The notes under the pieces are model-generated. The model made no database searches, had not been told where the DNA came from, and saw only the letters and a list, made by a program, of their open reading frames with translations. The position numbers and the translations under genes were made by a program. Positions 3,323-37,624 of a DNA stretch of 64,000 bases are shown here, in pieces. Position 1 is the first letter of the stretch; each line of letters starts with the position of its first letter. Source of the DNA: an uncultured Actinomycetes bacterium (GTDB lineage Bacteria; Actinomycetota; Thermoleophilia; Gaiellales; Gaiellaceae); contig CAVXZL010000001.1 of NCBI GenBank assembly GCA_963766345.1, positions 1,911-65,910 on the forward strand, read 5' to 3'.

Positions 3323-3892
3323 TTGTTCAAGGTCGGCGACAAGGTGGTGTATCCGCACCACGGAGCAGGCACGATCGTCAAGAAGGAAAAGCGCGTCGTC
3401 CTGGGGGAGAAGCGCGAGTACCTGACGATCAAGATCCTGCACAACGACATGACCGTCAACGTTCCGTGCGAGAACGCCGAGGCCGTCGGCCTCAGGCAGG
3501 TCATCGACGAAGAGATGGTCAAGAAAGTCACCAAGGCACTGACCGGCGGCGGCACTGCGATGCCCAAGAACTGGAACCGCCGCTTCAAGCACAACCGCGA
3601 CAAGATGAAGACCGGCGACATCTTCGAGCTTGCCGAGGTCGTCCGGAACCTGTCGCTCCGCGATCACGAGAAGGGCCTCTCCACGGGTGAGAAGCAGATG
3701 TTCGTGAAGGCCAAGAAGATCCTCGCGTCCGAGCTCATGTACGCGAAGAGCCTCGACGAGGAGGCCGCCGCCGACTGGCTCGACGACGTGCTCTCCACGA
3801 ACGGCACGAACGGAACGAACGGCACGAAGAAGACGACGGCGACGGCGAAGACGGCGTCGACCACCAAGACGAAGGCCGGCGCGGCCGCATAG
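3323..3892 (+). CDS. carD: CarD-family RNA-polymerase-binding transcription regulator
   Basis: TTG start preceded by the SD GGGGAGGAAGG. The N-terminus FKVGDKVVYPHHGAGTI...REYLTIKI matches the CarD/TRCF RID fold. The tail is low-complexity and rich in NGT/T/K. Confidence 0.9.
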   Translation: MFKVGDKVVYPHHGAGTIVKKEKRVVLGEKREYLTIKILHNDMTVNVPCENAEAVGLRQVIDEEMVKKVTKALTGGGTAMPKNWNRRFKHNRDKMKTGDIFELAEVVRNLSLRDHEKGLSTGEKQMFVKAKKILASELMYAKSLDEEAAADWLDDVLSTNGTNGTNGTKKTTATAKTASTTKTKAGAAA

Positions 3893-3893
3893 C

Positions 3894-4550: not shown

Positions 4551-5122
4551 GGGCCGCCGTGTTCGACGTCGGCGAGACGCTGCTCGACGAGACGGCGCTC
4601 TGGGAGAGCGCCGCGGACACCGCGGGGGTTCCGCGTTTCACGCTGATGGGCCTCCTGGGCGGGCTCGCCGCCCGCGGCGAGCCGCACTCGAACGTCTGGG
4701 AGATCCTCGGCGTCGAGCGCCCGGCGACGTCGTGGCCCGGCGACGGTTTCTACCCCGACGCGCTGCCGACCCTGCGCCTGCTCCGTGCGCGCGGCGTCAT
4801 CGTCGGCGCGGTGGGCAACACGCCCGTGGAGGCCGAGGAGCTTCTGCGCGAACACGTCGACTTCGTCGGCTCGTCGGCACGATGGGGTGTCGAGAAGCCG
4901 GCGGTCGCGTTCTTCGAGCAGGTCGCCGCCGAGGCCGGCGTGCCCGCCACGGAGATCGCCTACGTCGGAGACCGCGTCGACAACGACGTCGTCCCGGCGC
5001 TCGCGGCGGGGATGGTTGCCGTGCACATCCGGCGCGGCCCGTGGGGGCACCTCCACGAGCCGCCGGCAGCCGCCCTTCGCGTCGCGAGCCTCGCCGAGCT
5101 ACCCCGGGTACTCGGTGTCTGA
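4541..5122 (+). CDS. HAD-superfamily hydrolase
   Basis: Motif I FDVGETL, a K in VEKP, and motif IV VGDRVDNDV. The ATG at 4541 overlaps the ispD stop by 10 nt, and the 3' end overlaps the ispF start by 8 nt. Confidence 0.75.
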   Translation: MAVRAAVFDVGETLLDETALWESAADTAGVPRFTLMGLLGGLAARGEPHSNVWEILGVERPATSWPGDGFYPDALPTLRLLRARGVIVGAVGNTPVEAEELLREHVDFVGSSARWGVEKPAVAFFEQVAAEAGVPATEIAYVGDRVDNDVVPALAAGMVAVHIRRGPWGHLHEPPAAALRVASLAELPRVLGV

Positions 5123-5603
5123 GCTCCGGATCGGCACCGGCGTCGATGCGCATGCCCTCGAGCCGGGTGTGCCGCTCGTGCTCGGCGGGGTCTCGTTCGA
5201 CTCGCCGCGCGGGCTCGCCGGCCACTCCGACGGCGACGTGATCACGCACGCGCTGATCGACGCGTTGCTCGGCGCGGCCGCGCTCGGCGATATCGGAGCG
5301 ATGTTCCCGCCGGACGATCCCGAGCTCAAGGGCGTCTCGTCCGTGAAGCTGCTGCGCGAGGCCTACGGGCAGGTGCGCCGCGCGGGCTACGAGCTCGTGA
5401 ACGCGGACGTCGTCTTCATCGGCCAGGAGCCGCGGCTCGCGCCGGTTCGCGCGCAGATGCAGGAGACGCTCGCCGCGGCGCTCGACCTCGACGACCAGGC
5501 GAGGATCTCCGTGCGCGCCACGACGACGGACGGCTTGGGCTTCACCGGCCGGGGCGAGGGCCTTGCGGCGCAGGCCGTCGCGCTGCTCGAGCGGACTACC
5601 TAG
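5115..5603 (+). CDS. ispF: 2-C-methyl-D-erythritol 2,4-cyclodiphosphate synthase
   Basis: GTG start. Motifs IGTGVDAHAL, GHSDGDVITHALIDALLGA and TTTDGLGFTGRGEG. Confidence 0.9.
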   Translation: MSELRIGTGVDAHALEPGVPLVLGGVSFDSPRGLAGHSDGDVITHALIDALLGAAALGDIGAMFPPDDPELKGVSSVKLLREAYGQVRRAGYELVNADVVFIGQEPRLAPVRAQMQETLAAALDLDDQARISVRATTTDGLGFTGRGEGLAAQAVALLERTT

Positions 5604-6003
5604 CGCGCCGCTTCGCGCGCTCGAGCCGCCGCCGCTGCTCGCGGCTGAGCCCTTCGGGCACGATCCCCTGCTGCTCCTGCATGTCGAGCACGGCCTTCCG
5701 CTCCTTCGCCGACAGCTGGGACATCGCCTGCTGCGCCTTCAGCGGATCGTTGGTCGCGCCGCCGTATCGCTTCAGCTTCTTCATCGCGCTCGCGAGCTCC
5801 GGGTTCGACCGCTCCATAGCCGCCTCGGAGGCCTTCTCCAGCAGGCCGCGGAGGAACGGCACCTTCGCCATCGTCGTGAACAGCGGCCGGAGGTAGCGAC
5901 CGCCCTTGATCCGCGAGAGGACGAACAGGATCCCGAAGACGAGCGCGACCCCGAGCAGGATCCAGACTGGGAGCAGGATGAGCCAGGGCACGGCGAGCAG
6001 CAC
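5596..6003 (-). CDS. Hypothetical membrane-anchored protein
   Basis: An N-terminal TM helix (LLAVPWLILLPVWILLGVALVFGILFVL) is followed by a charged helical region. It begins 11 nt downstream of the AhpD-like ORF on the same strand. Confidence 0.5.
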   Translation of the reverse strand: MLLAVPWLILLPVWILLGVALVFGILFVLSRIKGGRYLRPLFTTMAKVPFLRGLLEKASEAAMERSNPELASAMKKLKRYGGATNDPLKAQQAMSQLSAKERKAVLDMQEQQGIVPEGLSREQRRRLERAKRRAR

Positions 6004-6014
6004 GGGTGCCCAGA

Positions 6015-6563
6015 TTAGCCGCTCTCGAGCGCATATCCGCTCGCGAGCATCGCGTCGGCCCGCTCGAAGAACGACTCGAAGGACGGGATGTCCCAGCCGA
6101 GCGAGTCGGCGAGGCGGACGATCATGCTGAAGAGCGCGCAGATGTGGATCGCGTCCACGAGCGCCTCGTCGGAGACGCCAGCCGCGCGCACGGCGTCCGC
6201 ATCGGCGCGGGTCACCTCATCCGGCTCGAGCGTCAGCTTCTCGAGGAAGCCGAGCGTCGCAGCGAGGCGCTTCGACACCGGCGCCGTTCGCCAGTCGCGC
6301 CGAACGGCTTCCCAGACCTCCTCGCCGAGCGCGTACGACGCGACCGCGCCGTGGGCGTTCGTTCAGAACACGCACTGGTTGAGCGACGACACGAACGCGG
6401 CGAACAGCTCCCGCTCGCCGTCGCTCCAGTCCGACGGCCCGCGCAACGCGAGCTCCAGCGCGTCCGAGTACGGCCGCCCGAAGAGCTCGGGCCGGTAATG
6501 GAGCGTCTTCAGCACACCGAGGGGCCTCGGCGCGGGAGCGGCATCGACGACGGCGAGCCTCAC
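6015..6563 (-). CDS. AhpD/carboxymuconolactone-decarboxylase-family peroxidase-related protein, predicted selenoprotein (UGA at 6363-6365 decoded as Sec)
   Basis: The tail of track ORF 6363..6824 and track ORF 6015..6278 share one frame and are separated only by a TGA. Read-through gives ERELFAAFVSSLNQCVF-U-TNAHGAVASY, which is the family N-x-C-x-x-C-x-x-x-H motif with Sec at the second Cys. The GTG start at 6563 overlaps the upstream stop (GTGA). Confidence 0.7.
6335..6352 (-). promoter_or_regulatory. SECIS-like hairpin downstream of the UGA in the AhpD-like gene
   Basis: The RNA ACGGCGC-GGUC-GCGUCGU forms a 7-bp stem including one G-U pair. It starts 11 nt after the UGA and has GGU in the apical loop. 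Confidence 0.5.
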
Positions 6564-6802
6564 AGTGCCCCCAGCCCCGCTTCGAGCCGAACCAGTCCCG
6601 CCGCGACCGCCGTCGAGACCGTGTGCTCGAAGATCTGATCCTCGGAGAAGCCCGCGTCCTTCAGGGACTGCACGTCGGCGTCCGTGACGCGGTACGCGTG
6701 GAGGCGTACCTTCTCGAGATACGACGCGAGCTCCGGCGGCGCCGGCCGCTCGGGGCGCGCGGCGCGCCGCAGCTCCTCGATGAGCGGGTCGTAACGCGTC
6801 AC
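6560..6802 (-). CDS. Small CMD/AhpD-like domain protein (C-terminal-half-like, no CxxC)
   Basis: 80 aa. The segment YRVTDADVQSLKDAGFSEDQIFEHTVSTAV resembles the distal helices of CMD-family proteins. There are GTGA overlaps at both ends. Confidence 0.5.
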   Translation of the reverse strand: MTRYDPLIEELRRAARPERPAPPELASYLEKVRLHAYRVTDADVQSLKDAGFSEDQIFEHTVSTAVAAGLVRLEAGLGAL

Positions 6803-7506
6803 GCGGGCACCGTGACGCTCTCACCCTCGACGCGCACGAGACCGTCGCGCGCGAGCGCGGCGATCGCCTCCGCGTCGTCCGAAGACCCTCCGGCGAGGAC
6901 CGCGCGCAACGCGTGCGCCCGCCGCTGCCGAAACGAGCCCTCGAACGGCGACTGCTTGCGGAGCGGCTCGTAGCGGCGACCGACGGACGGACACCGCTCT
7001 GCCAACGGGCACACGCCGCAGCGAGGCACGCGTGCGAGGCAAACGGTCGCTCCGAGATCCATCAGCGCGTGTGCGTTGCCGGCGGCGAACGTGTGGCCCG
7101 TGCGTTCCTCGACGCGGCGCACGTTCGTGTCGCGCGGAAGCTCGTCGTCGCCGAACGCGAAGTTGCGCACGGCCGCAGCCGTGTACTCGCCGACGCCGGG
7201 CAGGCTCGCAAGGTCATCCGGCCAGCCGCCGGCGGCGACGGCTCGCGCCGCTCGCTGGAGGTTCAGCGCCCGACGGTTGTAACCGAGCCCCTGCCACTCG
7301 CACAGGACGTCTGCCGTCTCGGCAGCGGCGAGAGCCTCGATCGTCGGCCAGCGCTCGAGCCAGCGCAGGTATCGCGGCACGACGCGTGCCACCTGCGTCT
7401 GTTGCAGCATCACCTCGCTCACCAGGATCGAGTACGGATCACGGGTCCTGCGCCACGGCAGATCTCGCCCGTTTTCGCTGAACCAGTCCGAAAGCAGCTC
7501 GTCCAC
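6799..7506 (-). CDS. mutY: HhH-GPD adenine DNA glycosylase, MutY-like short form with a 4Fe-4S loop
   Basis: Motifs LPWRRTRDPYSILVSEVMLQQTQV, WQGLGYNRRA, LPGVGEYTAAAV and the Fe-S loop CLARVPRCGVCPLAERC. The GTG at 7506 is preferred as the start. The track ORF extends to 7641 through an Arg/Pro-rich, non-homologous N-terminus. Confidence 0.8.
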   Translation of the reverse strand: MDELLSDWFSENGRDLPWRRTRDPYSILVSEVMLQQTQVARVVPRYLRWLERWPTIEALAAAETADVLCEWQGLGYNRRALNLQRAARAVAAGGWPDDLASLPGVGEYTAAAVRNFAFGDDELPRDTNVRRVEERTGHTFAAGNAHALMDLGATVCLARVPRCGVCPLAERCPSVGRRYEPLRKQSPFEGSFRQRRAHALRAVLAGGSSDDAEAIAALARDGLVRVEGESVTVPA

Positions 7507-7643
7507 AGGATCGAGCCTACTTCGGCGCCCGGTCGCACACGACGGCTTCTTGCCCGACGCGTTAGCTTTCGGATCTCTACCCGGTCGAGGCGGCGGTGTG
7601 GGAATCCGCCTGATCGCCATCGCCGGGGGAAAGGGGTTCACGG

Positions 7644-15927: not shown

Positions 15928-16000
15928 GCCGGAGTAGCTCAGCTGGTAGAGCACCCGCCTTGTAAGCGGGCGGTCGTGGGTTCGAGTCCCACCTCCGGCT
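15928..16000 (+). tRNA. tRNA-Thr (anticodon UGU)
   Basis: The cloverleaf was folded by hand. Acceptor GCCGGAG/CTCCGGC, D arm GCTC-AGCTGGTA-GAGC, anticodon arm CCCGC-CTTGTAA-GCGGG, T arm GTGGG-TTCGAGT-CCCAC. Confidence 0.9.
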
Positions 16001-17526: not shown

Positions 17527-18114
17527 TCAGGCCGGGTTGCGCGCTCGCGTCTCGAGCAGCAGGCCGCGGAGGAAGAGGCCGATCTCGCCGAGCGGGAGCA
17601 CGACGTCCGCGTCGGTCGCGGCGATCGCCGCCGAGGGCATCTCGTGCCGCTCGGCCGACTCGGGGTCCTGGACGATCGCGACGCCGCCCAGCTCCTTGAT
17701 CCGCCGGAGGCCGTCGGCGCCGTCGTCGTTGGCCCCGGTGAGCACGATGCCGATGCATCGCTCGCGATACGCCTCGGCTGCGGTGCGGAACAGGACGTCG
17801 ATCGACGGGCGCGCAAAGCGCACGCGCTCCTCCGTCGAGAGGCCGATCGTGCCGTCGGACTCGATCAGCGTGTGGTAGTCCGACGGCGCGAGGTACACGG
17901 TGCCCGGCCGCAGCTCGTCCTTGTCCTCGACCTCACGCACGGGCAGCGTCGTATAGCGCTGAAGCAGCCCGGGGAGACGGGCCCCGCCTTCGGTGCCGCG
18001 GTGCAGCGCGACGACGACCGCTGCCGGGCAATCCTTGCCGAGCCCGTCCAGCAACACCTCGACCGCACGCATACCGCCCCACGAGCCGCCGATCACCACG
18101 ACGTCGTAATTCAC
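17527..18114 (-). CDS. cheB: CheB-type protein-glutamate methylesterase, catalytic domain only (no receiver domain)
   Basis: Motifs VVVIGGSWGG, RPSIDVLFRTAA and IVLTGANDDGADGLRRIKELGG. The ATGA overlaps the cheR stop. Confidence 0.85.
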   Translation of the reverse strand: MNYDVVVIGGSWGGMRAVEVLLDGLGKDCPAAVVVALHRGTEGGARLPGLLQRYTTLPVREVEDKDELRPGTVYLAPSDYHTLIESDGTIGLSTEERVRFARPSIDVLFRTAAEAYRERCIGIVLTGANDDGADGLRRIKELGGVAIVQDPESAERHEMPSAAIAATDADVVLPLGEIGLFLRGLLLETRARNPA

Positions 18115-18992
18115 GCCTTCACCTTGCGGTAGAGCCGCTCGATCGCGTCGAGCTCCTCGTACTTGGCGGCGCTGTCGCTCATCCGCAGCGACTCCTTGTG
18201 TCCGAGCGCGAGGATCCCGAGCCGCATGAGGCTCGCGTCGAAGAGCTCGAAGACGCGCTCCTGCAGGCTGCGTTCGAAGTAGATCATCACGTTGCGGCAG
18301 ACGACCATGTGGAACTCGTTGAACGACCGGTCCGAAGCGAGGTTGTGCTGTGCGAACACGACGTTGCGCAGCAGCGAGCGGTCGAACGCGGCGCCGTCGT
18401 ACGCCGACGTGTAGTAGTCGGCGAACGCGCCTTTGCCTCCGGCCGCGATGTAGTTGCGCGTGTAGTCCTGCATCTTCGCGAGCGGGAAAACGCCGAGCCG
18501 CGCGCGCTCGAGCACGCCCTCGTTGATGTCGGTCGCATAGATCCGCGCGCGGTCGTACACCCGCTCCTCGTCGAGCAGGATCGCGAGCGAATACACCTCC
18601 TCGCCGGTCGAGCAGCCGGCGACCCAGATGCGCGTGAACGGATACGTCTTGAGCAGCGGCACGACTTTCTCGCGCAGCGCGACGTAGAACGTCGGGTCGC
18701 GGAACATCGCCGTGACGTTGATCGAGAGGTCGAGCAACAACCGCTCCATGACCTCCGGATCGCGAAGCAGCCGTTCCTGCAGAGACGAGATCGTCGGCAG
18801 CCCCTCGAGCTGCAGGCGCCGGTGCACACGCCGTCGCAGCGAGGCGGGCGCGTATTCGCGGAAGTCGAAGCCGTAGCGCCTGAAGACGGCTTCGAGCAGG
18901 CAGTCGAGCTCGATTTTCTCGAGGTCGAGCGCGTCGCCGCCGCTGGCCGAGGCGGCCGTCAGGCCTGCACTGCGCTGCGGTCGTACAGCCAT
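18111..18992 (-). CDS. cheR: CheR-type protein-glutamate O-methyltransferase
   Basis: Motifs [40 protein letters not shown] and [10 protein letters not shown]. It overlaps the 3' end of the kinase gene by 34 nt. Confidence 0.9.
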
Positions 18993-21900
18993 ACGCGGAG
19001 CAACGAGACGAGCTTGTCGGTGTCGACGGGCTTGGTGATGTAGTCCGAGGCGCCCGCGGCGATCGACTTCTCGCGGTCGCCCTTCATGGCCTTCGCGGTC
19101 AACGAGATGATCGGCAGCGCCTCGAACTGCGGCATCGCCCGGATCCGGCGGATCGTCTCGTAGCCGTCGAGCTCCGGCATCATGATGTCCATCAGGACGA
19201 CGTCGACGTCCGCGTCCTCGCCGAGCAGCTTGAGCGCATCGAGCCCGTTCTCGGCGTAGCGGACGTGCATGCGGCGAGCCTCGAGAACGTTGCTCAGCGC
19301 AAACACGTTGCGCACGTCGTCGTCGACGATCAGCACCTTCTTGCCTTCGAAGACGGCGTCTGCGCTGTGCAGCTGCTGCAACAGCTTCCGCTTCTCCGCC
19401 GGAAGTCGCGACTCGACGCGATGCAGGAAGAGGGTCGTCTCGTCCAGCAGCCGCTCGGGTGAGTTCACGTCCTTGACGACGATCGTCTCTGCGTAGCGGC
19501 GCAGCGCGGTTTCCTCCTTGCGCGTGAGCTGTTTCGCCGTGTAGATGATCACCGGCACCTTCGAGAACCGGTCGTCGGACTTGACGCGCTCCAGCAGCTG
19601 AAAGCCCTGCATATCGGGCAGCTTGAGGTCGAGCACCATGCAGTCGTACGGCCCCCGCTCGAGCTCTGCGAGCGCTTCCTCGCTCGAGCCGACCGCGGTG
19701 ACGTTGATGTCCTCGCCGTCTCCGAGGAGCTCGGTCAGGGCCTGGCGCTGGGCGCTCTCGTCGTCGACGACGAGGAGGTTCCTCACCCTCCGGTCGAGGA
19801 AGCCGGAGATCTGGGAGAACGCCTCGTCGAGCAGCGACTTCTCGACGGGCTTCTCGAGGAAGGCAACCGCTCCGGCGCGCAGGGCGTCCTGCTTGCCGTT
19901 CTCGGCGCCGGTGACGACGTGCACCGGGATGTGACGCGTGTCGGGATGGCGCTTCAGGTGATCGAGCACCGCCCAGCCGTCCATGCCGGGAAGCGCCATG
20001 TCGAGGACGATCGCGTCGGGCTTGGACTCGTGCGCGAGGGCGAGCCCTGCATCGCCGCGCAGCGCGACGATTCCCTTGAAGCCACGCTCGCGCGCAACCT
20101 CGAGCACCGTTCTCGCGAAGGTCTCGTCGTCCTCGACGATGAGCACGACGCGGTCGCCGACGTCGATCGAGCCGCGATCGTCGTCGACGCCGCTCGAGAG
20201 GATCAGCGCGGGGTCGATAACGGGACCGGGCACGGCGTCGCCACCGATCGCGGAGCGCTCACGCGTCAGCGGTGCATCGCTGGCCGCGCCGCGGGACGCG
20301 CTGTAGCGCACGGGCAGGTAGAGCGTGAACGTCGATCCCTCGCCGGGCGACGACGTGACGTGGATCTCGCCGCCGAGGAGGCGCGCGATCTCGCGGCTGA
20401 TCGACAGGCCGAGGCCCGTCCCGCCGTAGCGCCTGCTCGTCGTCCCGTCGGCCTGCTGGAACGCCTCGAAGATGAGCTTCAGCTTGTCCGAGGGGATGCC
20501 GACGCCGGTGTCGGTGACGGCGAAGGAGAGCACGGTGTCGGCGTCGAGGAGCGTCCGCTCCCGCAGCTTCGCGCCTTCGCCGGCGCGGGAGACGCGAAGC
20601 GAGACCGTGCCGCTCTCCGTGAACTTGCACGCGTTCGAGATCAGGTTCTTGAGCACCTGCTGCAGTCGCTGCTCGTCGGTCGCGATCTTCGGCGGCACGT
20701 CGGCCGCGATGTCGACGTCGAAGCCGAGCCCCTTCTCCTCCGCGACCGGGCGGAACGTGCGGTTGACGTAGTCGCGGACCTCGTCGAGGCCGAGGTCGGT
20801 GACGTGGACGTCCATCTTGCCGGCTTCGACCTTGGAGAGATCGAGGATGTCGTTGATCAGGTTCAGCAGGTCGCTGCCCGCGGTGTAGATCGTCTTCGCG
20901 AACTCGATCTGCTTCGGAGTCAGGTTCTGCTCCGGGTTCTCCGAGAACAGCCGCGCGAGGATCAGCATCGAGTTGAGGGGCGTGCGCAGCTCGTGCGACA
21001 TGTTCGCGAGGAACTCGCTCTTGTACTTCGACGAGAGCGCGAGCTGCTCCGCCTTGTCCTCGATCGCCGAGCGAGCGTCCTCGATCTCGCGGTTCTTGAT
21101 CTCGATGCGCGCGTTCTGCTCCTCGAGCAGCTGCGCCTTCTCCTCGAGCTCCTCGTTCGTCTGCTGCAGCTCCTCCTGCTGCTGCTGGAGCAGCTCCTCG
21201 GAGGTCTTCAGCGACGCGGCCTGCATCTCGAGCTCGGTGTTCGACCGCTTGAGCTCCTCCTGCTGCGACTGCAGCTCCTCCGAGCGCTCCTGCAGATCCT
21301 CGGTCAGCTTCTGCGACTGCGTGAGCAGCTCCTCGGTGCGCATGTTCTGCTGGATGACGTTGATGACGATCCCGAGCGACTCCATCAGCGCCTCGAGGAA
21401 CGCCTGGTGCGTCTCGCTGAACGGATGGAACGACGCGAGCTCGACGACCGCCATCGTCTGCCCCTCGAACAGCGCCGGCAGCACGAAGACGTTGTGCGGC
21501 GATGCCTCGCCGAGCCCGGACGCGATGCGGATGTAGTCGTCCGGCGCCTCGGTGAGCAGGATTGGCGCCTTCTCGAGCGCCGCCTGGCCGACGAGCCCCT
21601 CGCCGAGCCCGAAGCGGTTCGCGACCGTCTTGCGCTGCTTGTACGCGTAGCTCGAGATCAGGCGCAGCTCGAGCTCCTCGCCCTCGCCGTGCGCGAGGAA
21701 GAACGCGCCGTGGTGCGCGCCGACGAGCGGCGTCAGCTCCGACATGATCATGCGGCTCACGGTCTCGAGGTCGCGCTGGCCCTGCATCATTCCGGTGAAC
21801 CGCGCGAGGTTCGAGTTGAGCCAGTCCTGCTCGGCGTTCCGTCGCGTCGTCTCCGCGAGGTTGCGGATCATCTCGTTGATGTTGTCCTTGAGCTCGCCGA

Positions 21901-24364
21901 CCTCGCCCTTCGCCTCGACGGCAACCGTCCGCGTGAGGTCGCCCTGCGTCACCGCGGTTGAGACGTCGGCGATCGCGCGCACCTGAGTCGTCAGCGACGC
22001 GGCCATCGTGTTCACGTTCTCCGTGAGGTCGCGCCACACGCCCGAGACGCCCCGCACCTGAGCCTGACCGCCGAGCTTCCCCTCGGTGCCGACCTCCTTC
22101 GCGACGCGCGTGACCTCCGCTGCGAACGAGGAGAGCTGGTCGACCATCGTGTTGATCGTGTTCTTGAGCTTGAGCACCTCGCCGCGCGCGTCCACGGTGA
22201 TCTTCTGCGAGAGGTCGCCCTGTGCGACTGCGGTCGTCACCTCGGCGATGTTGCGCACCTGCCCCGTGAGGTTGTCGGCGAGCGTGTTGACGGAGTCGGT
22301 GAGGTCCTTCCAGGTGCCGCTGACGCCCTTGACGCGTGCCTGGCCGCCGAGCTTGCCCTCGGTGCCGACCTCGCGCGCCACGCGCGTGACCTCGTCGGCG
22401 AACGAGGAGAGCTGGTCGACCATCGTGTTGATCGTGTTCTTGAGCTGGAGGATCTCGCCCTTGACGTCGACGGTGATCTTCCGGCCGAGGTCGCCCTGGG
22501 CGACCGCCGTCGTGACCTCGGCGATGTTCCGCACCTGGCCGGTCAGGTTCGACGCCATGAAGTTGACGTTGTCGGTCAGGTCCTTCCAGACGCCCGACAC
22601 GCCCTCGACGCGGGCCTGGCCGCCGAGGATGCCCTCGGTGCCGACCTCGCGCGCCACCCGCGTGACCTCCGCTGCGAACGAGCGGAGCTGGTCGACCATC
22701 GTGTTGATGGTCTCCTTGAGCTCGAGGATCTCGCCGCGCGCGGTCACGGTGATCTTGCGAGAGAGGTCGCCCTGCGCGACCGCGGTCGTGACGTCCGCGA
22801 TGTTCCGCACCTGGCCGGTCAGGTTGTCGGCGAGCGTGTTGACGTTGTCCGTGAGGTCCTTCCACGTACCGGAGACACCCTCGACCTTCGCCTGGCCGCC
22901 GAGCTTGCCCTCGGTGCCGACCTCCTTGGCGACGCGCGTGACCTCGTCGGCGAACGAGGAGAGCTGGTCGACCATCGTGTTGATCGTGTTCTTGAGCTCG
23001 AGGACCTCGCCCTTGACGTCGACGGTGATCTTCTTCGAGAGGTCGCCCGTCGCGACGGCGGTCGTGACGTCCGCGATGTTCCGCACCTGCGCGGTCAGGT
23101 TCGCCGCGAGCGTGTTGACGTTGTCGGTGAGATCCTTCCAGACGCCCGAGACGCCCTTCACGTCGGCCTGGCCGCCGAGGATGCCCTCGTTGCCGACCTC
23201 GCGCGCGACGCGCGTCACCTCGCCGGCGAACGCGCGCAGCGTGTCGATCATCGAGTTGATCGTGTCCGCGAGCTGTGCGACCTCGCCCTGCGCCTCGATC
23301 GTGAACTTCCGGTCGAGGTCGCCGTTCGCGACGGCGGTGACGACGCGCGCGATCCCGCGGACCTGCGTCGTCAGGTTCGTCGCCATGAAGTTCACGTTGT
23401 CGGTGAGGTCCTTCCAGGTGCCGCTGACGCCCTTGACGCGTGCCTGGCCGCCGAGCTTGCCCTCCGTGCCGACCTCGCGGGCGACGCGTGTGACCTCGTC
23501 GGCGAACGAGGAGAGCTGGTCGACCATCGTGTTGATCGTGTTCTTCAGCACCAGGATCTCGCCCTTGACGTCGACGCTGATCTTCCGACTCAGATCGCCT
23601 GCGGCGACCGCCTTCGTGACGTCTGCGATGTCGCGCACCTGTGCGGTCAGGTTCGACGCCATGAGGTTGACGTTGTCCGTGAGGTCCTTCCAGACCCCGG
23701 ACGTTCCCTTGACCTTCGCCTGCCCGCCGAGCTTGCCCTCGGTGCCGACCTCGCGCGCCACGCGCGTCACCTCGTCGGCGAAGCTCGAGAGCTGGTCGAC
23801 CATTGCGTTGACCGTCGTGCCGATGCGGCGGAACTCCCCTCGTAGGGGCCTCCCGTCGATCCGCAGGTCCATCCGCTGCGAGAGATCGCCGTCGGCGACC
23901 GCGTCGATCACGCGGGCGATCTCGTTCGTCGGCCTGACGAGATCGTCGATCATGCCGTTGATCGCGTCCGTGGTCTCGCGCCAGGCGCCGCGGTAGCGCG
24001 GCAACGCCACGCGCTCGTTGAGGCGCCCGTCCCGGACGACGCGTGCGACGCGCTGCAACTCGTCTGCGAGGTTCGAGCGCCTGTCCGCGAGGTCGTTGTA
24101 GGCACGCGCGAGCTCTCCGCCGAGGCCGCTCTGCTCTCCGCTCAGCCGAAAGTCGAAGTCACCGGCGCTGGCCGCGCGCAGAGCAGCGAGCAACTCGCGC
24201 AGCGGCGCCTCGTCGACCGCGCCGTTTCCGTTCGTCCCTTCGGTCGCGACTTCGGCGCGAGTTGTCTTCGCTCGTGACGTTCTGCTCGCAGCCACCGTTG
24301 CTCCTTCCGCAGTAGGAGTGCTCCGGGCGGGGTTGTCGGGGGTCACCAACTCGAGCCCTCGCAC
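18959..24364 (-). CDS. Soluble hybrid sensor histidine kinase: poly-HAMP array, GAF, E/Q-rich coiled coil, HisKA, HATPase_c, three receiver domains
   Basis: No TM segment was found. There are 8 tandem 92-aa HAMP-pair units, a GAF domain (aa ~860-1000), H-box [10 protein letters not shown] (His ~1124), N/G boxes, and three REC domains (LIVEDDE...[15 protein letters not shown]...[15 protein letters not shown]...DIMMPELDG). An alternative start, GTG 24295, has the strong SD GGAAGGAG. Confidence 0.9.
21851..24064 (-). repeat. Coding tandem repeat: 8 x 276 bp (92-aa HAMP-pair units; first copy degenerate)
   Basis: The unit FA[DAG]EVTRVA[RK]EVGxEGxLGGQAxVxGxSGxWxDLTxNVNxxAxxLTxQVRxIAxVxxAVxxGDLxxKxxVxxxGExxxLKxTINxMVDQLxS starts at aa 195, 287, 379, 471, 563, 655 and 747. 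Stretches of about 80 nt are near-identical between copies (for example around 22100, 22380, 22930, 23480). Confidence 0.9.
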
Positions 24365-27254: not shown

Positions 27255-28055
27255 CTACCGCACGCCGACGCGAACGCGATAGCCGAAGACGAACGGCACG
27301 GTGCGGTCGCCGAGGACGCGTTGTGCGACGGCTTCGAGTTCTTTCACGCCGAGCTCGTCGTCGGCGTCCTCGTACGTCATGTCGACGACCGGCAGGCCGA
27401 GGCTTCGCGTGAAGCCGACGACGCGCTCGGCATCGCCCTCCTCGACGGAGTGCAGCAGGATCTCGCGGCAGTACGTGAAGCGGCCGCTCTCGCGCATGCG
27501 TTCGAGATGCTCGTGCTTCGGCCAGCGGTCGCCGCCTCGCTCGATGCCGTGCCTGCGGCGGAAGCCGGCGCGGCGCCGCTGATACTCCTCGTACGCCGCG
27601 TCGAGCTCGGGCTCCACGACCGGCGGCCAGTCGTAGTCGTAGGCGGCGAACACGCCGCCCGACCGCAGGATGCGCGCGGCCTCCGCGAACGTTTGCGCGG
27701 GCTCCATCCAGTGCAGCGACTGCGAGCACGTCACGATGTCCGCGCAGCCGTCGTCGAGGCCGGTCTCCTGCGCGAACGCCTCGCGATACTCGACGCCGGG
27801 CGCGGCGGGCGCGGCGGCAAGCATCGCGGCGTTCGGCTCGACGCCGATCGCCCGCTCGGCCACTCCCGACCACGCGCGCGTCGAAAGCCCGGTGCCGCAG
27901 CCGAGGTCGACGACGAGCGCCGGCCGCTCGACGCGCGCGTACCGGCAGAGGACGTCGAGCAGCGCGCGCGGGGGCCGCGGCCGGTAGCGGTCGTAGCGGG
28001 ACGCGAATCCTTCGCGGTCGTAGCCCGACGCGTCGATCAGGTCGCGTGAGGACAC
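27255..28055 (-). CDS. Class I SAM-dependent methyltransferase (Methyltransf_11-like)
   Basis: Motif VVDLGCGTGLST and the acidic loop DIVTCSQSLHW. Confidence 0.8.
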   Translation of the reverse strand: MSSRDLIDASGYDREGFASRYDRYRPRPPRALLDVLCRYARVERPALVVDLGCGTGLSTRAWSGVAERAIGVEPNAAMLAAAPAAPGVEYREAFAQETGLDDGCADIVTCSQSLHWMEPAQTFAEAARILRSGGVFAAYDYDWPPVVEPELDAAYEEYQRRRAGFRRRHGIERGGDRWPKHEHLERMRESGRFTYCREILLHSVEEGDAERVVGFTRSLGLPVVDMTYEDADDELGVKELEAVAQRVLGDRTVPFVFGYRVRVGVR

Positions 28056-28059
28056 GGCA

Positions 28060-28076
28060 GCGAGGTTAGACCTCGC
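28060..28076 (-). terminator. Small hairpin GCGAGGT-TAG-ACCTCGC after the GGDEF/HD-GYP gene
   Basis: 7-bp stem 10 nt beyond the stop at 28087. There is no U-tract. Confidence 0.3.
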
Positions 28077-28086
28077 CGCGGACTGC

Positions 28087-29880
28087 CTAGGAGACGAGGC
28101 CTGCCGGGACCGGGCTCACGACGGCCGTCAGCGCGGCGACCGCTTGCGGATCGAACTGCTTCCCGGCCGACTCCTCGAGCTCGGCGAGCGCAGCGTCGAC
28201 GGTCAGTTTCTTGCGATACGCGCAGTCGCTCGTCAGCGCGTCGAACGCCTCCGCCACGGCGACGATCCGCGAGCCGAGAGGGATGTCGTCGCCGTGGAGG
28301 CCGTCCGGATAGCCGGCGCCGTCCCAGTGCTCGTGGTGGTGGAGCACGCAATCGGCGATCGGATCGGCGCCGAGGCTCTCGAGCATCCGGTAGCCCACCT
28401 GCGGATGCCGCTCGAGCGTCAGCCGCTCCGCGTCCGTCAGCGGCTCCGGCTTGCGGAGGATCTCGTCCGGCACGGCGAGCTTGCCCACGTCGTGAAGGCC
28501 GCCGGCGATGCGCACGAGCTCGACGTCGTTCGCATCGAGGTCGAGCCGCGTGGCGATCCGCTCCGCCAGCTCGGCGACGCGCGCGGCATGACCGTCGGCG
28601 TACGCGTCCCGCGCGTCGACAGCTTTCGCGAGGCTCTCCGCCGCCTCGATCCGCGCCGCGCGGTCGCCACCGCGCGTGAGCTTCTTCAGGTCGGCGAGGT
28701 CGACGACCTCCGGCCGGTACGCGTGCACGCGGTTCTTGCCGTGCTCCTTCGCCCAGTAGAGAGCGCTGTCGGCCAGCCGGATCAGCTCGTCGCGGCCGAC
28801 GCCCTGCACCGGGTACGTCGCGACACCTGCGCTCACCGTCACGGGCTCAGTGAACTCGAGCTGCATGCCGCGCAGGCGATCGACGATGGATGCGGCCGTG
28901 TCGAGCGCGGCTGCCTCGGCCTGCTCCGGGAGCAGCACGGCGAACTCGTCGCCGCCGAGTCGGAAGGCCTCGCCGCCCTGCCGCAGCCGCCCGGCGACCT
29001 CCGACAGAACGCGGTCGCCCACCGGATGGCCGTACACGTCGTTGATGTGCTTGAAGTCGTCGAGGTCGACGAGGCAGAGGCTCAGGAACCCGCGCGCTTC
29101 TTCCGCCGCGACGAGCTCGCGCTGGAGCCGCTCGTGGAAGTGGCGGTGGTTGCCGAGACCCGTCAACGGGTCGGTGAGCGCGAGCCGCATCGCGCGCAGC
29201 GCGCGATACGTCGAACGTTGGTACAGCGAGATCGCGAGCAGCGGCCCGACGAGGGCGGCCGCGAGGATCGCCGAGCGCTGCCAGAGAACGACGAGGATGA
29301 GCGACGCCGACGCCATCAGCGCGAAGGGGATGACCGTGCCGACGGTGTTCGTCCGCACGAGCGAGGTGAACGAGCGCTTCGAGTGGACGGCGACGACGAG
29401 CGTGATCAGGAGCAGGTTGATCCAGTAGTCCACGAACGCCGCGATGCCGACCGCGAGCACCAGCCCGCCGACGGTCTGCGTGTCGAGCCACTGGATCGAG
29501 AGGCCCGCGAGCGCCGCCGCGCCGCCGAAGACGGACGCGTTGTAGACGACGCGGATCGCGGGGCGGTGCTGAAGAAGCTGCGTGAACGTCCCGATCGCCG
29601 CGAGCAGCGCGCCCGCTTCCCAGCCGTAGATGACCGTCGTCGAGACGACGAAGACGTAGAGCAGCGAGACGCCGCCGGCGTCGGCTCCCTCGACCGGAAC
29701 CGGGAAGCGCTCCGCGAACATCGACGCCGCGAGCAGCGCGGCGAGCCCGAGGAGCGTGCCCGTCGAATGATCCTGGCGCGCGAACGAGATCGCCGCCCAG
29801 GCAAGCGTGAGGGCGCCCGCCGTGCAGACGGGCACCAGCACGGCGAGCAGCCGTGGCGGGAGGCCCGCCCGCGCGCTCAC
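28087..29880 (-). CDS. Membrane-bound GGDEF + HD-GYP domain protein (c-di-GMP synthesis/hydrolysis)
   Basis: About 6-7 N-terminal TM helices. GGDEF domain (RLGGDEFAVLL, I-site-like RVHA) and HD-GYP domain (GGLHDVGKLAVP, HHEHWDGAGYPDGL). The GTG at 29880 is preferred. The track ORF extends to 29958. Confidence 0.85.
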   Translation of the reverse strand: MSARAGLPPRLLAVLVPVCTAGALTLAWAAISFARQDHSTGTLLGLAALLAASMFAERFPVPVEGADAGGVSLLYVFVVSTTVIYGWEAGALLAAIGTFTQLLQHRPAIRVVYNASVFGGAAALAGLSIQWLDTQTVGGLVLAVGIAAFVDYWINLLLITLVVAVHSKRSFTSLVRTNTVGTVIPFALMASASLILVVLWQRSAILAAALVGPLLAISLYQRSTYRALRAMRLALTDPLTGLGNHRHFHERLQRELVAAEEARGFLSLCLVDLDDFKHINDVYGHPVGDRVLSEVAGRLRQGGEAFRLGGDEFAVLLPEQAEAAALDTAASIVDRLRGMQLEFTEPVTVSAGVATYPVQGVGRDELIRLADSALYWAKEHGKNRVHAYRPEVVDLADLKKLTRGGDRAARIEAAESLAKAVDARDAYADGHAARVAELAERIATRLDLDANDVELVRIAGGLHDVGKLAVPDEILRKPEPLTDAERLTLERHPQVGYRMLESLGADPIADCVLHHHEHWDGAGYPDGLHGDDIPLGSRIVAVAEAFDALTSDCAYRKKLTVDAALAELEESAGKQFDPQAVAALTAVVSPVPAGLVS

Positions 29881-29890
29881 GTCGCGTTTT

Positions 29891-30007
29891 CTACCAGCCG
29901 AACTGCCGGAGCGTGTCGCCGGCGTCACCCGCGTAACCGCCGAACGCTGCGACCGCAAGCGCCGCGAGGGTGAGGACTGCGTAGAAGCGTGGTTTCCACT
30001 GAAGCAT
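29891..30007 (-). CDS. Possible 38-aa single-TM small protein
   Basis: ATG preceded by GGAAAGG. The sequence is MLQWKPRFYAVLTLAALAVAAFGGYAGDAGDTLRQFGW. It is below the ORF-track size cutoff and sits between the NlpC/P60 and GGDEF genes. Confidence 0.3.
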   Translation of the reverse strand: MLQWKPRFYAVLTLAALAVAAFGGYAGDAGDTLRQFGW

Positions 30008-30029
30008 CGTTGGGGCCTTTCCGCAGAGG

Positions 30030-30067
30030 ACGAGGAAGAATCGAGACGTGCCGATTGTCTTCCTCGT
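30030..30067 (-). terminator. 10-bp inverted repeat ACGAGGAAGA-n18-TCTTCCTCGT downstream of the NlpC/P60 gene
   Basis: Perfect 10-bp stem seen in the sequence, about 40 nt after the stop at 30106. No U-tract. Confidence 0.35.
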
Positions 30068-30105
30068 TGCCGTTGCGGACATCACCACAACGGGGGATCT
30101 GGTGT

Positions 30106-33630: not shown

Positions 33631-34773
33631 GTGGATCTCTACGAGTACCAGGGGAAGCAGCTCTTCCGCCGTTTCGGCATCCCCGTCTCCGACGGCCGGC
33701 TCGCGACCTCGCCGGAGGAGGCGCGGGCCGCGGCGGTGGAGCTCGGCGGCCCGGTCGTCGTCAAGGCCCAGGTGCTCACCGGCGGGCGAGGCAAGGCCGG
33801 CGGCGTGAAGCTCGCGGACGACCCCGCGGACGCCGAGCAGAAGGCGCGCGCGATTCTCGGGCTCGACATCCGCGGCCACGTCGTGCGCAAGCTCTGGATC
33901 GAGCGCGCGTCCGACATCGCGAAGGAGTACTACCTCTCCGTCACGTTCGACCGCTCGGAGAAGGCACCGCTCTTCATGCTCACGACCGAGGGCGGAGTCG
34001 AGATCGAGGAGGTCGCCGCGACGAAGCCCGAGGCACTCGCGCGGCTGCATGCGAACGTCCTCGAGGGCTTCCAGCCGTACCAGGGCAGGCGCCTCATCTA
34101 CGGCTCCGGCATCGACGACCCGGGCGAGCAGAAGCAGGTGCTCGACATAGTCGGGAAGCTCTACCGCTGCTTCGAGGAGTCCGACGCGATGCTGTGCGAG
34201 ATCAACCCGCTCGTCGTCACGCCCGACGGCACGGTGAAGGCGCTCGACGCGAAGGTCACGATCGACGACAGCGCGCTCTACCGGCACGCAGACATCGCCG
34301 AGATGCGCGACATCTCCGCCGCTGACCCGCTCGAGGCGTTCGCCCGCGAGAAGGGCGTCACGTACGTGAAGCTCGACGGCTCGGTCGGGATCCTCGGCAA
34401 CGGCGCGGGGCTCTCGATGTCGACCGTGGACGTGGTCGTCGTCGCGGGCGGCAAGCCGGCGAACTTCTGCGACCTCGGCGGCGGCGGCGACGCGCAGGGC
34501 GTGGTCGACGCGCTCGAGGTGATCGTCCGCGACAACGACGTCCGCTCGATCTTCTTCAACATCTTCGGCGGCATCACGCGCTGCGACGAGGTCGCGCGCG
34601 GCATCCTCGCGGCGCTCGAGCAGATGTCGATCACGCTGCCGCTCGTCGTGCGGCTCGACGGGACGAACGCGGACGAGGGACGGCAGATCCTCCGGGACGC
34701 CGCGCCGCCGAACCTCTACGTCGAGCCGACGATGCTCGACGCGGCACGCCGCGCGGTGGAGCTCGCAGGATGA
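33631..34773 (+). CDS. sucC: Succinate--CoA ligase beta subunit
   Basis: Motifs MDLYEYQGKQLF and KAQVLTGGRGKAGGVK, with NIFGGITRCDEVA near the C-terminus. Confidence 0.95.
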   Translation: MDLYEYQGKQLFRRFGIPVSDGRLATSPEEARAAAVELGGPVVVKAQVLTGGRGKAGGVKLADDPADAEQKARAILGLDIRGHVVRKLWIERASDIAKEYYLSVTFDRSEKAPLFMLTTEGGVEIEEVAATKPEALARLHANVLEGFQPYQGRRLIYGSGIDDPGEQKQVLDIVGKLYRCFEESDAMLCEINPLVVTPDGTVKALDAKVTIDDSALYRHADIAEMRDISAADPLEAFAREKGVTYVKLDGSVGILGNGAGLSMSTVDVVVVAGGKPANFCDLGGGGDAQGVVDALEVIVRDNDVRSIFFNIFGGITRCDEVARGILAALEQMSITLPLVVRLDGTNADEGRQILRDAAPPNLYVEPTMLDAARRAVELAG

Positions 34774-35426
34774 GCGACCTCTGGAGCGGCCGCGCCGAGG
34801 CGTATCGCACGTCGACGACGCACATGCAGGGCGACGATCTCGAAGCAGTGGTCGCGATGTGCGAGCCCGGGGAGGGCGTCAAGGCGCTCGACGTCGCGAC
34901 GGGCGGCGGTCACGTCGCGCGGCGCCTCCGCGAGGAAGGCTGCGAGGTGGTCACCGTCGACAGCTCGCCCGGCATGCGGCCGGACGTGCTCTCGCGTGCG
35001 GAGGATCTGCCTTTCGCCGACGGCTCGTTCGACGTCGTCGTGTGCCGGATCGCCGCACATCACTTCGCCGATCTCGAGAAGGCCGTCGCCGAGATGGCGC
35101 GCGTCTCGAACCGGCTCGTCGTGATCGAGGACACGCTGTACATCTCCGACCAGCAGGAGGAGGCCGAGCGGCTGCGCGACCCCTCGCACGTCCGCTCGCG
35201 CTCCGAGGACGAGTGGAAGGAGCTGCTCACCGAGGCGGGGCTCGAGGTCGAGCAGGTGGAGTTCTTCGAGAAGGTGCACAAACTCGACGACTGGCTCGCG
35301 CGCACCTGCTGCGAGGGCGAAGAGGCCGCGCGTGTGACCGAGCTTCTCGCGCCCCGGTTGCTCGAGGACGGCACTGCCTGGCGCGACACGAAGATCCTGC
35401 TGAAGTCGCGGAAGTCACAAAGCTGA
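34770..35426 (+). CDS. Class I SAM-dependent methyltransferase inserted between sucC and sucD
   Basis: Motifs LDVATGGGHVA and FDVVVCRIAAHHF. There is an ATGA overlap with the sucC stop and a TGATG overlap with the sucD start. Confidence 0.8.
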   Translation: MSDLWSGRAEAYRTSTTHMQGDDLEAVVAMCEPGEGVKALDVATGGGHVARRLREEGCEVVTVDSSPGMRPDVLSRAEDLPFADGSFDVVVCRIAAHHFADLEKAVAEMARVSNRLVVIEDTLYISDQQEEAERLRDPSHVRSRSEDEWKELLTEAGLEVEQVEFFEKVHKLDDWLARTCCEGEEAARVTELLAPRLLEDGTAWRDTKILLKSRKSQS

Positions 35427-36304
35427 TGGCCATCGTCGTCGACAACGACACGCGCCTCGTCGTGCAGGGGCTGACCGGGAGCGAGGGCCGGTTCCACGGC
35501 CTGCGCAACCGCACCTACGGCACGAACCTCGTCGCGGGCGTCACTCCCGGCAAGGGCGGCCAGGACGTCGAAGGAGTTCCCGTCTTCAATACCGTCGCCG
35601 AGGCGGTCGCCGAGGCCGGCGCGAACACGACGCTCATCTTCGTCCCCGCGCGGTTCGCCGTCGACGCGATCTACGAGGCCGTCGACGCCGGAATCGGCAC
35701 GGTCGTCTGCATCACGGAGCACATCCCCGCGCACGACATGCTGCGTGTCTACACGTACGTTCGCGGGCTCGGCGTGACGCTCATCGGCCCGAACTGCCCG
35801 GGCGTGCTCTCGCCGGGCAAGGCGAACGTGGGGATCATCCCCGCGGAGATCTTCGCCGAGGGGAAGATCGGGCTCGTCTCGCGCTCCGGCACGCTCACGT
35901 ACCAGATCGGCCACGAGCTCGCGCAGCTCGGGCTCGGCAACTCGACGATCGTCGGGATCGGCGGCGATCCCGTCGTCGGCTCGTCGTTCATCGACGTCCT
36001 CGAGAAGTTCGAGGCCGATCCCGAGACCGAGTACGTCGTGCTCGTCGGCGAGATCGGCGGCAACGAGGAGGAGAAGGCCGCGTCCTTCATCGAGGAGCGG
36101 ATGACGAAGCCGGTGCTCGCCTACATCGCCGGCTTCTCGGCGCCGCCCGGCAAGACGATGGGACACGCCGGGGCGATCATCTCGGGGACGTCCGGAACCG
36201 CGCAGGCGAAGAAGGAAGCGCTCGAGGCGGTCGGCATCTCGGTCGGCACGACGCCGACGGAGGTCGCCCAGCTCGTGGCAGATCGCGTGGGAGCGCGGGC
36301 GTGA
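35426..36304 (+). CDS. sucD: Succinate--CoA ligase alpha subunit
   Basis: Motifs [28 protein letters not shown] and MGHAGAII (phosphohistidine loop). Confidence 0.95.
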
Positions 36305-37380
36305 TCTCTTTCTCGCGCGGCGTGCCGGCGCCGGAGTGCCTGCCGGTCGAGGAGCTCGCGGAGTGCGCGCGCTCTGCGCTGCTCGCCGACGGCCGCACCA
36401 TTCTCTCCTACGGATCGCCGAGCGGCTACGAGCCGCTGCGCACGTGGATCGCCGAGCGGCACGGCGTCTCGGTCGACCGCGTGTTCGTGACGAACGGCGG
36501 CCTCCAGGGCTTCGTCTTCTTCGCGCACCGGCTCGCGTCGGGCGGTGAGCGCGTGCTCGTCGAGCAGCCGACGTACGACCGGCCGCTCAAGATCCTGCGC
36601 GAGGCCGGCGCGGAGATCGTGCCGCTGCCGATGGACGACGAAGGTCTCCAGCCGGAGGCGCTCGAGCAGGCGCTCGGCTCCGGTTCCAAACCCGCGTTCC
36701 TCTATACGATCCCGACCTTCCAGAACCCGAGCGGACGGACGCTGTCGCTCGAACGCCGTAAACGGATCGTCGAGCTCGCGGAGCAGCACGACCTGCTCGT
36801 GCTCGAGGACGATCCGTACGGCCTCGTCCGCTTCGAGGGAACCGCTCAGCCGTCGCTGCTCGACCTCGACGAGGGAGACCGCGTCGTCTACGCCTCGTCG
36901 TTCTCGAAGACCGTGGCGCCGGGCGTCCGCGTCGGCTACTTCATCCTGCCCGCCGCCCTGCGCGCGGAGCTCGAGGCGACGTCGACTTCTACCTACATCA
37001 CGCCCGGCCTCGTCGGCGAGGCAATCGTCTACGAGTTCATCCGCAGCGGCCGCTTCGAGTCGAACCTCGAGCGCGTGCGTGGGCTCCTCGGCGCCCGCCG
37101 CGATGCCATGCTCGAGTCGCTCGAGGCCGAGCTCGGCGGTACGGGGGCGACCTGGTCGCGACCCGAGGGCGGCTACTTCGTCTGGCTCGACGTTCCGGGG
37201 ACGGACACCGTCGAGCTGCTCGGCCGCTCGACGGACGTCGGCGTCTCGTTCGTCGCAGGCGCCGACTTCGGCGGCGCTCCGTCGACCGCGCGCCTCGCCT
37301 ACAGCTTCGTCTCGCCGGACGAGATCCGCGAGGGCGTGCCGAAGCTAGCCGCGCTGCTTCCGTCCGCGGCGGCGCACTAG
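36301..37380 (+). CDS. PLP-dependent aminotransferase (class I/II fold)
   Basis: GTGA overlap with sucD. Motifs YGSPSGYEPLR, NPSGRTLS and SSFSKTVAPGVRVGY (PLP lysine). Confidence 0.85.
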   Translation: MISFSRGVPAPECLPVEELAECARSALLADGRTILSYGSPSGYEPLRTWIAERHGVSVDRVFVTNGGLQGFVFFAHRLASGGERVLVEQPTYDRPLKILREAGAEIVPLPMDDEGLQPEALEQALGSGSKPAFLYTIPTFQNPSGRTLSLERRKRIVELAEQHDLLVLEDDPYGLVRFEGTAQPSLLDLDEGDRVVYASSFSKTVAPGVRVGYFILPAALRAELEATSTSTYITPGLVGEAIVYEFIRSGRFESNLERVRGLLGARRDAMLESLEAELGGTGATWSRPEGGYFVWLDVPGTDTVELLGRSTDVGVSFVAGADFGGAPSTARLAYSFVSPDEIREGVPKLAALLPSAAAH

Positions 37381-37614: not shown

Positions 37615-37624
37615 GGGCGCGAAT

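Follow-up and report, generated by a model that had tools for sequence, protein, structure and literature searches.

In bacterial chemotaxis, the textbook device for memory is the reversible methylation of glutamate residues. Outside the chemoreceptors, to our knowledge, glutamate methylation has been shown for a single kinase, RsbK of Bacillus cereus, and in the methylating direction only. The DNA considered here, hereafter the window, is a stretch of 64,000 nucleotides from an uncultured member of the Gaiellaceae (Actinomycetota; assembly GCA_963766345.1, contig CAVXZL010000001.1, positions 1,911 to 65,910 of the forward strand). It encodes a large hybrid sensor histidine kinase with a long, acidic coiled coil just before its phospho-accepting histidine and, directly downstream, a CheR-type methyltransferase and a CheB-type methylesterase. 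We give methylation of the helix by the neighbouring CheR a probability of about 0.65.

RsbK comprises CHASE3, HAMP, and GAF domains; a signalling helix (S-helix); the histidine kinase domain (HK, with H505) and catalytic domain (CA); and a receiver domain (REC) (PMC4574943). The rsbK gene forms an operon with rsbM, whose CheR-type product methylates the S-helix; RsbM is an orphan, lacking a paired esterase (PMC4574943). Signalling by RsbK is repressed by S-helix methylation together with the inhibitory REC domain, which interacts partly with the S-helix, and RsbK-like kinases number 127 across 10 phyla (PMC4574943). Later papers restate RsbK methylation and report genomic association of RsbK with CheR. 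A close homologue (P0253) bears the source annotation "SigmaB associated two-component system sensor protein", which points to RsbK.

The window kinase (18959..24364, minus strand, as are all features below unless stated otherwise) has 1801 residues, with domains assigned from the translation and Pfam. The order begins with a poly-HAMP array (residues ~100-850; 21815..24067) of eight HAMP and eight HAMP_2 matches in repeats of ~92 residues; a GAF domain follows (residues 863-1001; 21362..21778; GAF_2, 2.9e-18). Next comes the coiled coil, from M1008 (MRTEELL) to Y1114 (SSKY) (21023..21343), delimited by heptad statistics, family conservation, length steps, and AlphaFold2 prediction; no Pfam model covers residues 1005-1114 in the Pfam scan. 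The coil enters the HisKA dimerization and histidine phosphotransfer domain (DHp; residues 1115-1182; 20819..21022), which carries the phospho-accepting His1124 within HELRTP (20993-20995). The HATPase_c catalytic domain (residues 1229-1352; 20309..20680) and three receiver domains (residues ~1406-1513, 1529-1649, and 1676-1792; 18989..20149; Pfam Response_reg and phmmer domain positions) complete the protein. The closest protein relative, at 90% identity, is labelled Gaiellaceae. An earlier note on this DNA had read an E-E-L heptad coiled coil between the GAF domain and the H-box, at residues ~1009-1110, with the phospho-accepting His near 1124. The Pfam layout and the heptad analysis below bear this out, and the translation is exact: residues 1009-1110 are encoded by nucleotides 21035-21340.

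(The poly-HAMP coding region, 22137-23538, contains near-identical DNA stretches at 22137, 22413, 22965, and 23517, spaced by 276 or 552 base pairs; this recurrence reflects the ~92-residue HAMP/HAMP_2 repeat units. Long cytoplasmic arrays of this kind resemble those of fungal group III hybrid kinases and Aer2.)

Two genes lie immediately downstream of the kinase gene, on the same strand and with overlapping ends. The first (18111..18992; 293 residues as listed) encodes a CheR-type protein-glutamate O-methyltransferase (phmmer with Escherichia coli CheR, 5e-19; Pfam CheR, 2e-39, and CheR_N, 1.3e-13), in which the equivalents of catalytic residues R53, R56, R98, D154, and Y235 are conserved. 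The second (17527..18114; 195 residues) encodes a CheB-type methylesterase (phmmer, 8e-19; Pfam CheB_methylest, 7.7e-55) that consists of the catalytic domain only, without a receiver domain, and conserves the Ser-His-Asp triad as S11, H38, and D131. The start of the CheR open reading frame (ORF) overlaps the kinase stop by up to 34 nucleotides, and the CheB GTG start overlaps the CheR stop (GTGA). A promoter and terminator scan of the operon found nothing on the coding strand.

Other chemotaxis components are missing from the window. All of its six-frame ORFs were searched by phmmer with E. coli CheR, the CheB catalytic domain, CheW, the Tar signalling domain, and CheA: these searches of the 64 kb revealed no methyl-accepting chemotaxis protein (MCP), CheA, or CheW, and the Tar signalling domain had no match. 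Nor does the kinase itself contain a Pfam MCPsignal (PF00015) domain. The 64 kb hold no other receiver, kinase, PP2C, or STAS gene.

The coiled-coil segment is regular throughout. One heptad position, d, is occupied by Leu or Ile 13 times running (1024, 1031 ... 1108), giving an unbroken register (prediction of the register was a check proposed in the earlier note); the a positions, three residues before each d, are polar or small (T, S, Q, N, A, E, Q, N, A, N, N, R, A). Such regularity could hardly arise by chance. In 100,000 composition-preserving shuffles, the placement of 13 of the 21 Leu, Ile, Val, and Met residues in one heptad position was never equalled; the six EEL tripeptides were equalled three times; and the three EE pairs spaced exactly seven residues apart, 456 times. 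EE dipeptides begin at 1011, 1029, 1036, 1056, 1064, 1071, 1074, and 1081, mostly at the exposed b and c positions. The seven-residue spacing described in the earlier note holds for 1029/1036 and for 1064/1071; the pair that it placed at about 1057 actually begins at 1056, and the step from there to 1064 is eight. The Leu register nevertheless remains strictly heptad across this step (L1059 to L1066).

Acidic pairs are concentrated in the segment, which holds 19 of the 30 [EQ][EQ] pairs of the whole protein and eight of its 12 EE pairs. With 25 Glu, three Asp, six Lys, and six Arg, it carries a net charge of about -16 over 102 residues. Near its centre, QQEEL (1062-1066) and TNEELEE (1069-1075) share one register: N or Q at a, EE at b and c, and L at d.

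AlphaFold2 predicts residues 987-1142 as one unbroken helix that runs into DHp helix 1 (predicted local distance difference test scores, 62-92). Comparison within the family adds length: in 314 of 319 non-redundant sequences, the conserved RTEELL motif lies 73, 80, 87, 94, 101, 108, 115, or 136 residues before the phospho-accepting His, so that coil lengths differ by multiples of seven. The window kinase, at 115, has one heptad more than the modal 108; alignments place the extra seven residues within positions ~1024-1037 (21254..21295). The lengths in sevens and the unbroken predicted helix together identify the segment as a signalling helix: a parallel, phase-locked coiled coil that runs without a break and has a polar, marginal core. 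(A helical hairpin or MCP-like four-helix bundle was ruled out by the absence of Gly and Pro from the segment, by the single AlphaFold2 helix, and by the lengths in sevens. A search of solved structures with the coil returned designed or generic coiled coils only.)

How does this locus compare with that of RsbK? Two features are shared: the domain order HAMP-GAF-helix-HisKA-HATPase-REC, with REC at the carboxyl terminus, and a CheR-type gene directly downstream. A 10-letter sequence at the junction of helix and DHp also appears to agree, judged on the RsbK side from a primer-derived peptide. The published primers yield the RsbK peptides NLGLTIH/SIMGRM at the start of the S-helix and a 12-letter peptide at its end (primers of PMC4574943). 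The latter matches a 13-letter stretch of the window kinase, and the two agree with the junction seen across the family, in a comparison made with the primer-derived peptides only. The methyl-accepting element of RsbK lies between the GAF domain and the H-box, and the window helix, as a candidate only, occupies the same place.

Four features differ. The window kinase has a cytoplasmic poly-HAMP array, whereas RsbK has CHASE3 and one HAMP domain; it has three receiver domains rather than one; its locus includes a CheB gene, whereas RsbM has no paired esterase; and, unlike the B. cereus pathway, the 64-kb window contains no gene for an RsbY-like REC-PP2C protein or for sigma-B partner switching. 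The REC-PP2C/sigma-B output is a hallmark of the pathway in B. cereus, not of this type of kinase. The window kinase probably belongs to the RsbK-type hybrid kinases, and its helix probably works like the RsbK S-helix.

Metagenome contigs contained no exact match to a 30-mer taken from the RsbK primers; a partly degenerate RsbK pattern found RsbK-like homologues there, B. cereus itself not being among them. One Firmicute-like homologue (L093) has a helix that begins SILGRM, a single REC, and only CheR downstream. It has the same EEL coil, with five consecutive SEELQxQ heptads; counted back from the phospho-accepting His, positions 59 and 66 (His-59 and His-66) each hold the second Glu of a SEEL heptad. 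De Been et al. in 2011 reportedly predicted methylation and demethylation in the helical domain before the H-box for RsbK homologues, including actinobacterial ones.

These comparisons suggest a model for the window kinase. The dimeric, parallel S-helix would carry the signal from the GAF domain and poly-HAMP array into the DHp domain of this RsbK-type hybrid kinase. With Leu or Ile at d and polar N, Q, S, T, or A at a, the coil would be marginally stable and sensitive to register. The proposed target of CheR is the second Glu in the central xEEL heptads, with E1065 and E1072 as the best candidates; methylation would neutralise charge and thereby alter the packing of the coil, the docking of the C-terminal receiver domain or domains on the S-helix and DHp, or both. 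Altered packing or docking would reset kinase output, and the receiver-less CheB would reverse the modification. Methylation and demethylation of the helix are proposed because CheR and CheB are encoded immediately after the kinase, and because of the B. cereus RsbK precedent. That the kinase is methylated is inferred, as are the residues concerned, the direction in which output would shift, and any feedback. Gene context, comparative data, and the homologue precedent thus support the earlier note's proposal that a methyl-accepting segment may feed into the DHp domain.

Support of a broader kind comes from the kinase family. When genomes of species representatives were searched with an alignment of the coil, over 569 sites matched, and 80 of these loci were fetched; a profile built from the same alignment recovered 2564 cluster representatives at E<=1e-3, and 1175 when the threshold was E<=1e-10. 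Among 30 long profile matches, HAMP is present in 24 and CHASE3 in four, and the amino-terminal sensors vary (CHASE3, 4HB_MCP, dCache, NIT, or PAS). The family alignments show conservation at nearly every position of the coil, on the surface as well as in the core.

Of 82 family loci assessed, seven have a flank too short to judge, leaving 75. In 42 of these, drawn from five or more phyla, the CheR and CheB genes come directly after the kinase gene on the same strand; represented are Gemmatimonadota, Actinomycetota, Acidobacteriota, Myxococcota (Polyangiaceae), and Fischerella. The other 33 have no CheR or CheB gene within at least 3 kb downstream; they come from Nostocaceae, Alphaproteobacteria, Burkholderiales, and Rubrivirga, with one from Solirubrobacteraceae and two from Acidobacteria. 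CheW occurs in none of the family loci examined. The next gene at most loci, after CheB or, where CheR and CheB are lacking, after the kinase itself, encodes a REC-PAS or REC-GAF kinase.

In Fischerella muscicola PCC 7414, a second kinase with the RsbK architecture and the same coil (CHASE3-HAMP-GAF-coil-HisKA-HATPase-REC3; L068:12489-16142, plus strand) sits between the poly-HAMP kinase and CheR-CheB, so one CheR/CheB pair may serve two kinases. In a Solirubrobacteraceae metagenome-assembled genome (L015:11533-13248, plus strand), the gene after a kinase without CheR/CheB encodes REC-SpoIIE(PP2C)-HATPase_c_2, an arrangement that resembles an RsbY-like phosphatase fused to an RsbW-like anti-sigma kinase. 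The L015 kinase itself carries a single REC, lacks WLY (see below), and has decayed Glu pairs (DK, DE).

An independent low-GC sample was drawn by searching metagenome contigs with a degenerate DNA pattern for the H-box. CheR was present in the locus for five of six distinct types of kinase with an EEL-type coil, and for one of eight types with the same H-box but without such a coil; that single type owes its CheR only to lying beside a coil-bearing kinase. The enrichment in CheR-linked kinases that the earlier note proposed to look for thus holds against kinases in general, but only in part within the family, where linked and unlinked members alike have the coil in largely the same form.

Which residues might be modified? 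The predicted methyl-accepting core is formed by the central acidic heptads, residues 1056-1075 (21140..21199). Within it, the pairs 1064/65 and 1071/72 keep their second Glu without exception across the 42 CheR/CheB-linked loci. These residues are E1065, at His-59 (21170-21172), and E1072, at His-52 (21149-21151). Among the unlinked, the lineages of Azospirillum, Methylobacterium, and Microvirga, together with the Solirubrobacteraceae locus, have Lys, Arg, or Ala in place of the second Glu, and two others have Gln. Counted on a kinase-core tree, Glu was lost in two to four of ~8 independent unlinked lineages and in none of ~6 linked ones, a difference that is not significant. E1065 and E1072 are named tentatively, as the best candidates rather than as probable sites.

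A second sequence feature follows CheR/CheB linkage. Among the kinase C-termini compared (L002-L081 and L083-L107), the last REC ends in ...LLRVWLY[R/K] in essentially all CheR- and CheB-linked kinases; in the window kinase, family comparison places RVWLY at residues 1790-1794 (18983..18997). WLY has been lost in six of ~8 unlinked lineages (alphaproteobacteria, Burkholderiales, Rubrivirga, L015, L051, and L073) and is retained in unlinked Nostoc and in L026; the CheR-only homologue L093 ends in WLAK. By analogy with the NWETF pentapeptide of chemoreceptors, RVWLY may be a docking site or tether for CheR or CheB, and is offered as a lead only.

Several observations weigh against methylation of the helix. 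The chemoreceptor consensus [ASTG][ASTG]xx[EQ][EQ]xx[ASTG][ASTG] has no match anywhere in the 1801 residues. The shorter motif [EQ][EQ]xx[AST], which the earlier note cited as what CheR and CheB recognise in chemoreceptors, fits at three places in the helix (1011, 1029, and 1081), and so is barely matched. The coil is almost unchanged in the 33 loci without adjacent CheR/CheB, as in Nostoc compared with the linked Fischerella; its conservation therefore does not depend on methylation. The decay of the Glu pairs in unlinked lineages rests on few independent contrasts and is suggestive. Finally, Chen et al. in 2012 reportedly placed the methyl sites of RsbK at E439 and E446 (His-66 and His-59); at His-66 the window kinase has L1058 rather than Glu.

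In one alternative, the helix would be only a signal-transmitting coil. Its Glu- and Gln-rich surface would then serve helix propensity, solubility, and marginal stability, and CheR and CheB would act on another substrate, such as chemoreceptors encoded elsewhere. Besides the intact coil of the unlinked loci and the unmet chemoreceptor consensus, this explanation is favoured by the position of the coil, which is flanked by GAF and HisKA in 30 of 30 long profile matches, whatever the context. Signal transmission is indeed the primary role of the coil, because it is equally present, and mostly intact, in relatives without adjacent CheR/CheB. Against the alternative, the window encodes no MCP, CheW, or CheA, and the sole MCP among 81 related loci examined lies upstream of the kinase at an Azospirillum locus that lacks CheR/CheB. 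In many phyla, moreover, the CheR-CheB pair comes straight after the kinase gene, with ends that overlap, and the B. cereus kinase is itself methylated by the CheR homologue encoded beside it (PMC4574943). Transmission without methylation is thus unlikely, although it is the strongest of the alternatives.

The acidic coil with its polar core could instead act, independently of methylation, as a sensor of ionic strength, pH, or divalent cations, or as a docking platform for receiver domains. Its composition and polar a positions are consistent with this, as are the conservation of nearly all surface positions, beyond the need of a plain coiled coil, and the partial interaction of the RsbK REC domain with the S-helix (PMC4574943). 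Such a role would leave the adjacent CheR and CheB unexplained; it is also compatible with methylation of the helix rather than exclusive of it. As a replacement for methylation we consider it improbable.

Methylation by the adjacent CheR outside the helix, in the poly-HAMP array, DHp, or receiver domains, is the least probable explanation: poly-HAMP arrays do occur in chemoreceptors such as Aer2, and a few [EQ][EQ] pairs lie elsewhere in the kinase (at 1145, 1201-1250, 1303, 1562, and 1663), but the poly-HAMP region (residues 100-850) is almost devoid of such pairs, the B. cereus precedent concerns the S-helix (PMC4574943), and in CheB/CheR-fusion kinases (below) it is an NEEL coil, rather than HAMP, that accompanies the enzymes.

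Methylation of the helix by the adjacent CheR thus remains the preferred explanation. A more ambitious version would make the locus a complete adaptation module, independent of chemoreceptors: the second Glu of N/Q-E-E-L would be methylated reversibly, possibly with RVWLY as tether, to provide memory or integral feedback, and the NEEL "code" would be read in cis by CheB/CheR fusions and would mark a general class of non-MCP substrates. All of this together is doubtful, more so than methylation of the helix alone.

The rest of the window is mostly housekeeping: radA, disA, carD, cysS, and genes for enzymes of the tricarboxylic acid cycle. A gene for a generic S-adenosylmethionine-dependent methyltransferase (27255-28115) was considered as the modifier and rejected; its product matches Methyltransf_11 rather than CheR, and it lies apart from the operon. 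It overlaps the end of a gene for a MASE9-GGDEF-HD-GYP (HD_5) protein (28087-30081), ~3 kb upstream of the kinase gene. Two tyrosine recombinase (phage integrase family) genes (42398-43414 and 43717-44601) lie close together between central-metabolism genes. Three stretches (3892-7614, 34773-38975, and 48946-52539) contain no ORF that passes a filter on third-position GC content. They are not rRNA operons, since Rfam at the gathering threshold found only a single tRNA in the whole window (15928-16000, plus strand).

Neither the methylatable-helix mechanism nor its broad occurrence is new to the literature. In the window locus and some forty relatives from soil phyla, the same helix is accompanied by a methyltransferase as well as a methylesterase, which suggests that many ordinary two-component kinases can adapt like chemoreceptors. 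Beyond the literature read, this analysis adds an esterase-containing operon found across several phyla; the heptad-quantised length of the helix; the NEEL register common to this helix and CheB/CheR fusions; the candidate residues E1065 and E1072; and a possible C-terminal docking motif. The candidate residues, the docking motif, and the link to CheB/CheR fusions can be tested directly with a soluble, cytoplasmic protein.

Three further systems invite comparison. First, the MCP adaptation region shares with the window helix Glu/Gln pairs at seven-residue spacing on the exposed face of a long coiled coil, near HAMP-type modules. MCPs are modified by CheR and CheB, and the same types of enzyme are encoded beside the window kinase. 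Charge neutralisation in MCPs is thought to change helix packing, as proposed here for the window helix. However, MCPs form an antiparallel four-helix hairpin, whereas a single continuous, parallel helix is predicted for the window kinase, which moreover has no MCPsignal domain, no methylation consensus, and no CheA or CheW partner, and carries its kinase on the same polypeptide. The window protein is not a chemoreceptor.

Second are the CheB/CheR-fusion kinases, named "two-component system CheB/CheR fusion protein" by the Joint Genome Institute (JGI; KEGG K13924). The earlier note had mentioned similar NEELQ coils in such proteins, and all seven retrieved with a chimeric query indeed contain a heptad coil directly after the CheR domain, with six or seven perfect heptads of the form N/S/K-E-E-L-x-S-x. 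Like the window coil, these coils (NEELQSxNEEL...) have N at a, E-E at b and c, and L at d, are associated with CheB and CheR, and lie upstream of a HisKA kinase. In the fusions, enzymes and coil share one polypeptide, whereas CheR and CheB are separate genes in the window; and the fusion coil lies after CheR and before PAS domains, whereas the window coil lies between GAF and DHp. None of the 140 best profile matches to the window coil contains a CheR or CheB domain, which makes the two coils similar motifs, not members of a single family. The literature searched contained no functional study of CheB/CheR-fusion kinases. (Stand-alone proteins of ~470-530 residues with Pfam CheR_N, CheR, and CheB_methylest are common, for example in Nitrospirae [P0243, P0246, P0248, and about 30 others], and REC-CheR fusions also exist [P0245, P0247, and P0302]. 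Two apparent kinase-CheR fusions, P0241 and P0244, were set aside as likely frameshift or assembly artefacts of high-GC contigs, with long Arg-rich junk or an abrupt join inside CheR.)

Third is the S-helix family, which Anantharaman, Balaji, and Aravind in 2006 reportedly described as a parallel, dimeric coiled coil joining a sensor module to DHp or another output. The window helix resembles it in its conserved polar residues and its predicted phase-dependent signalling. It differs in its length, about 107 residues against 40-50 or so, and in its unusually conserved sequence and its acidic pairs.

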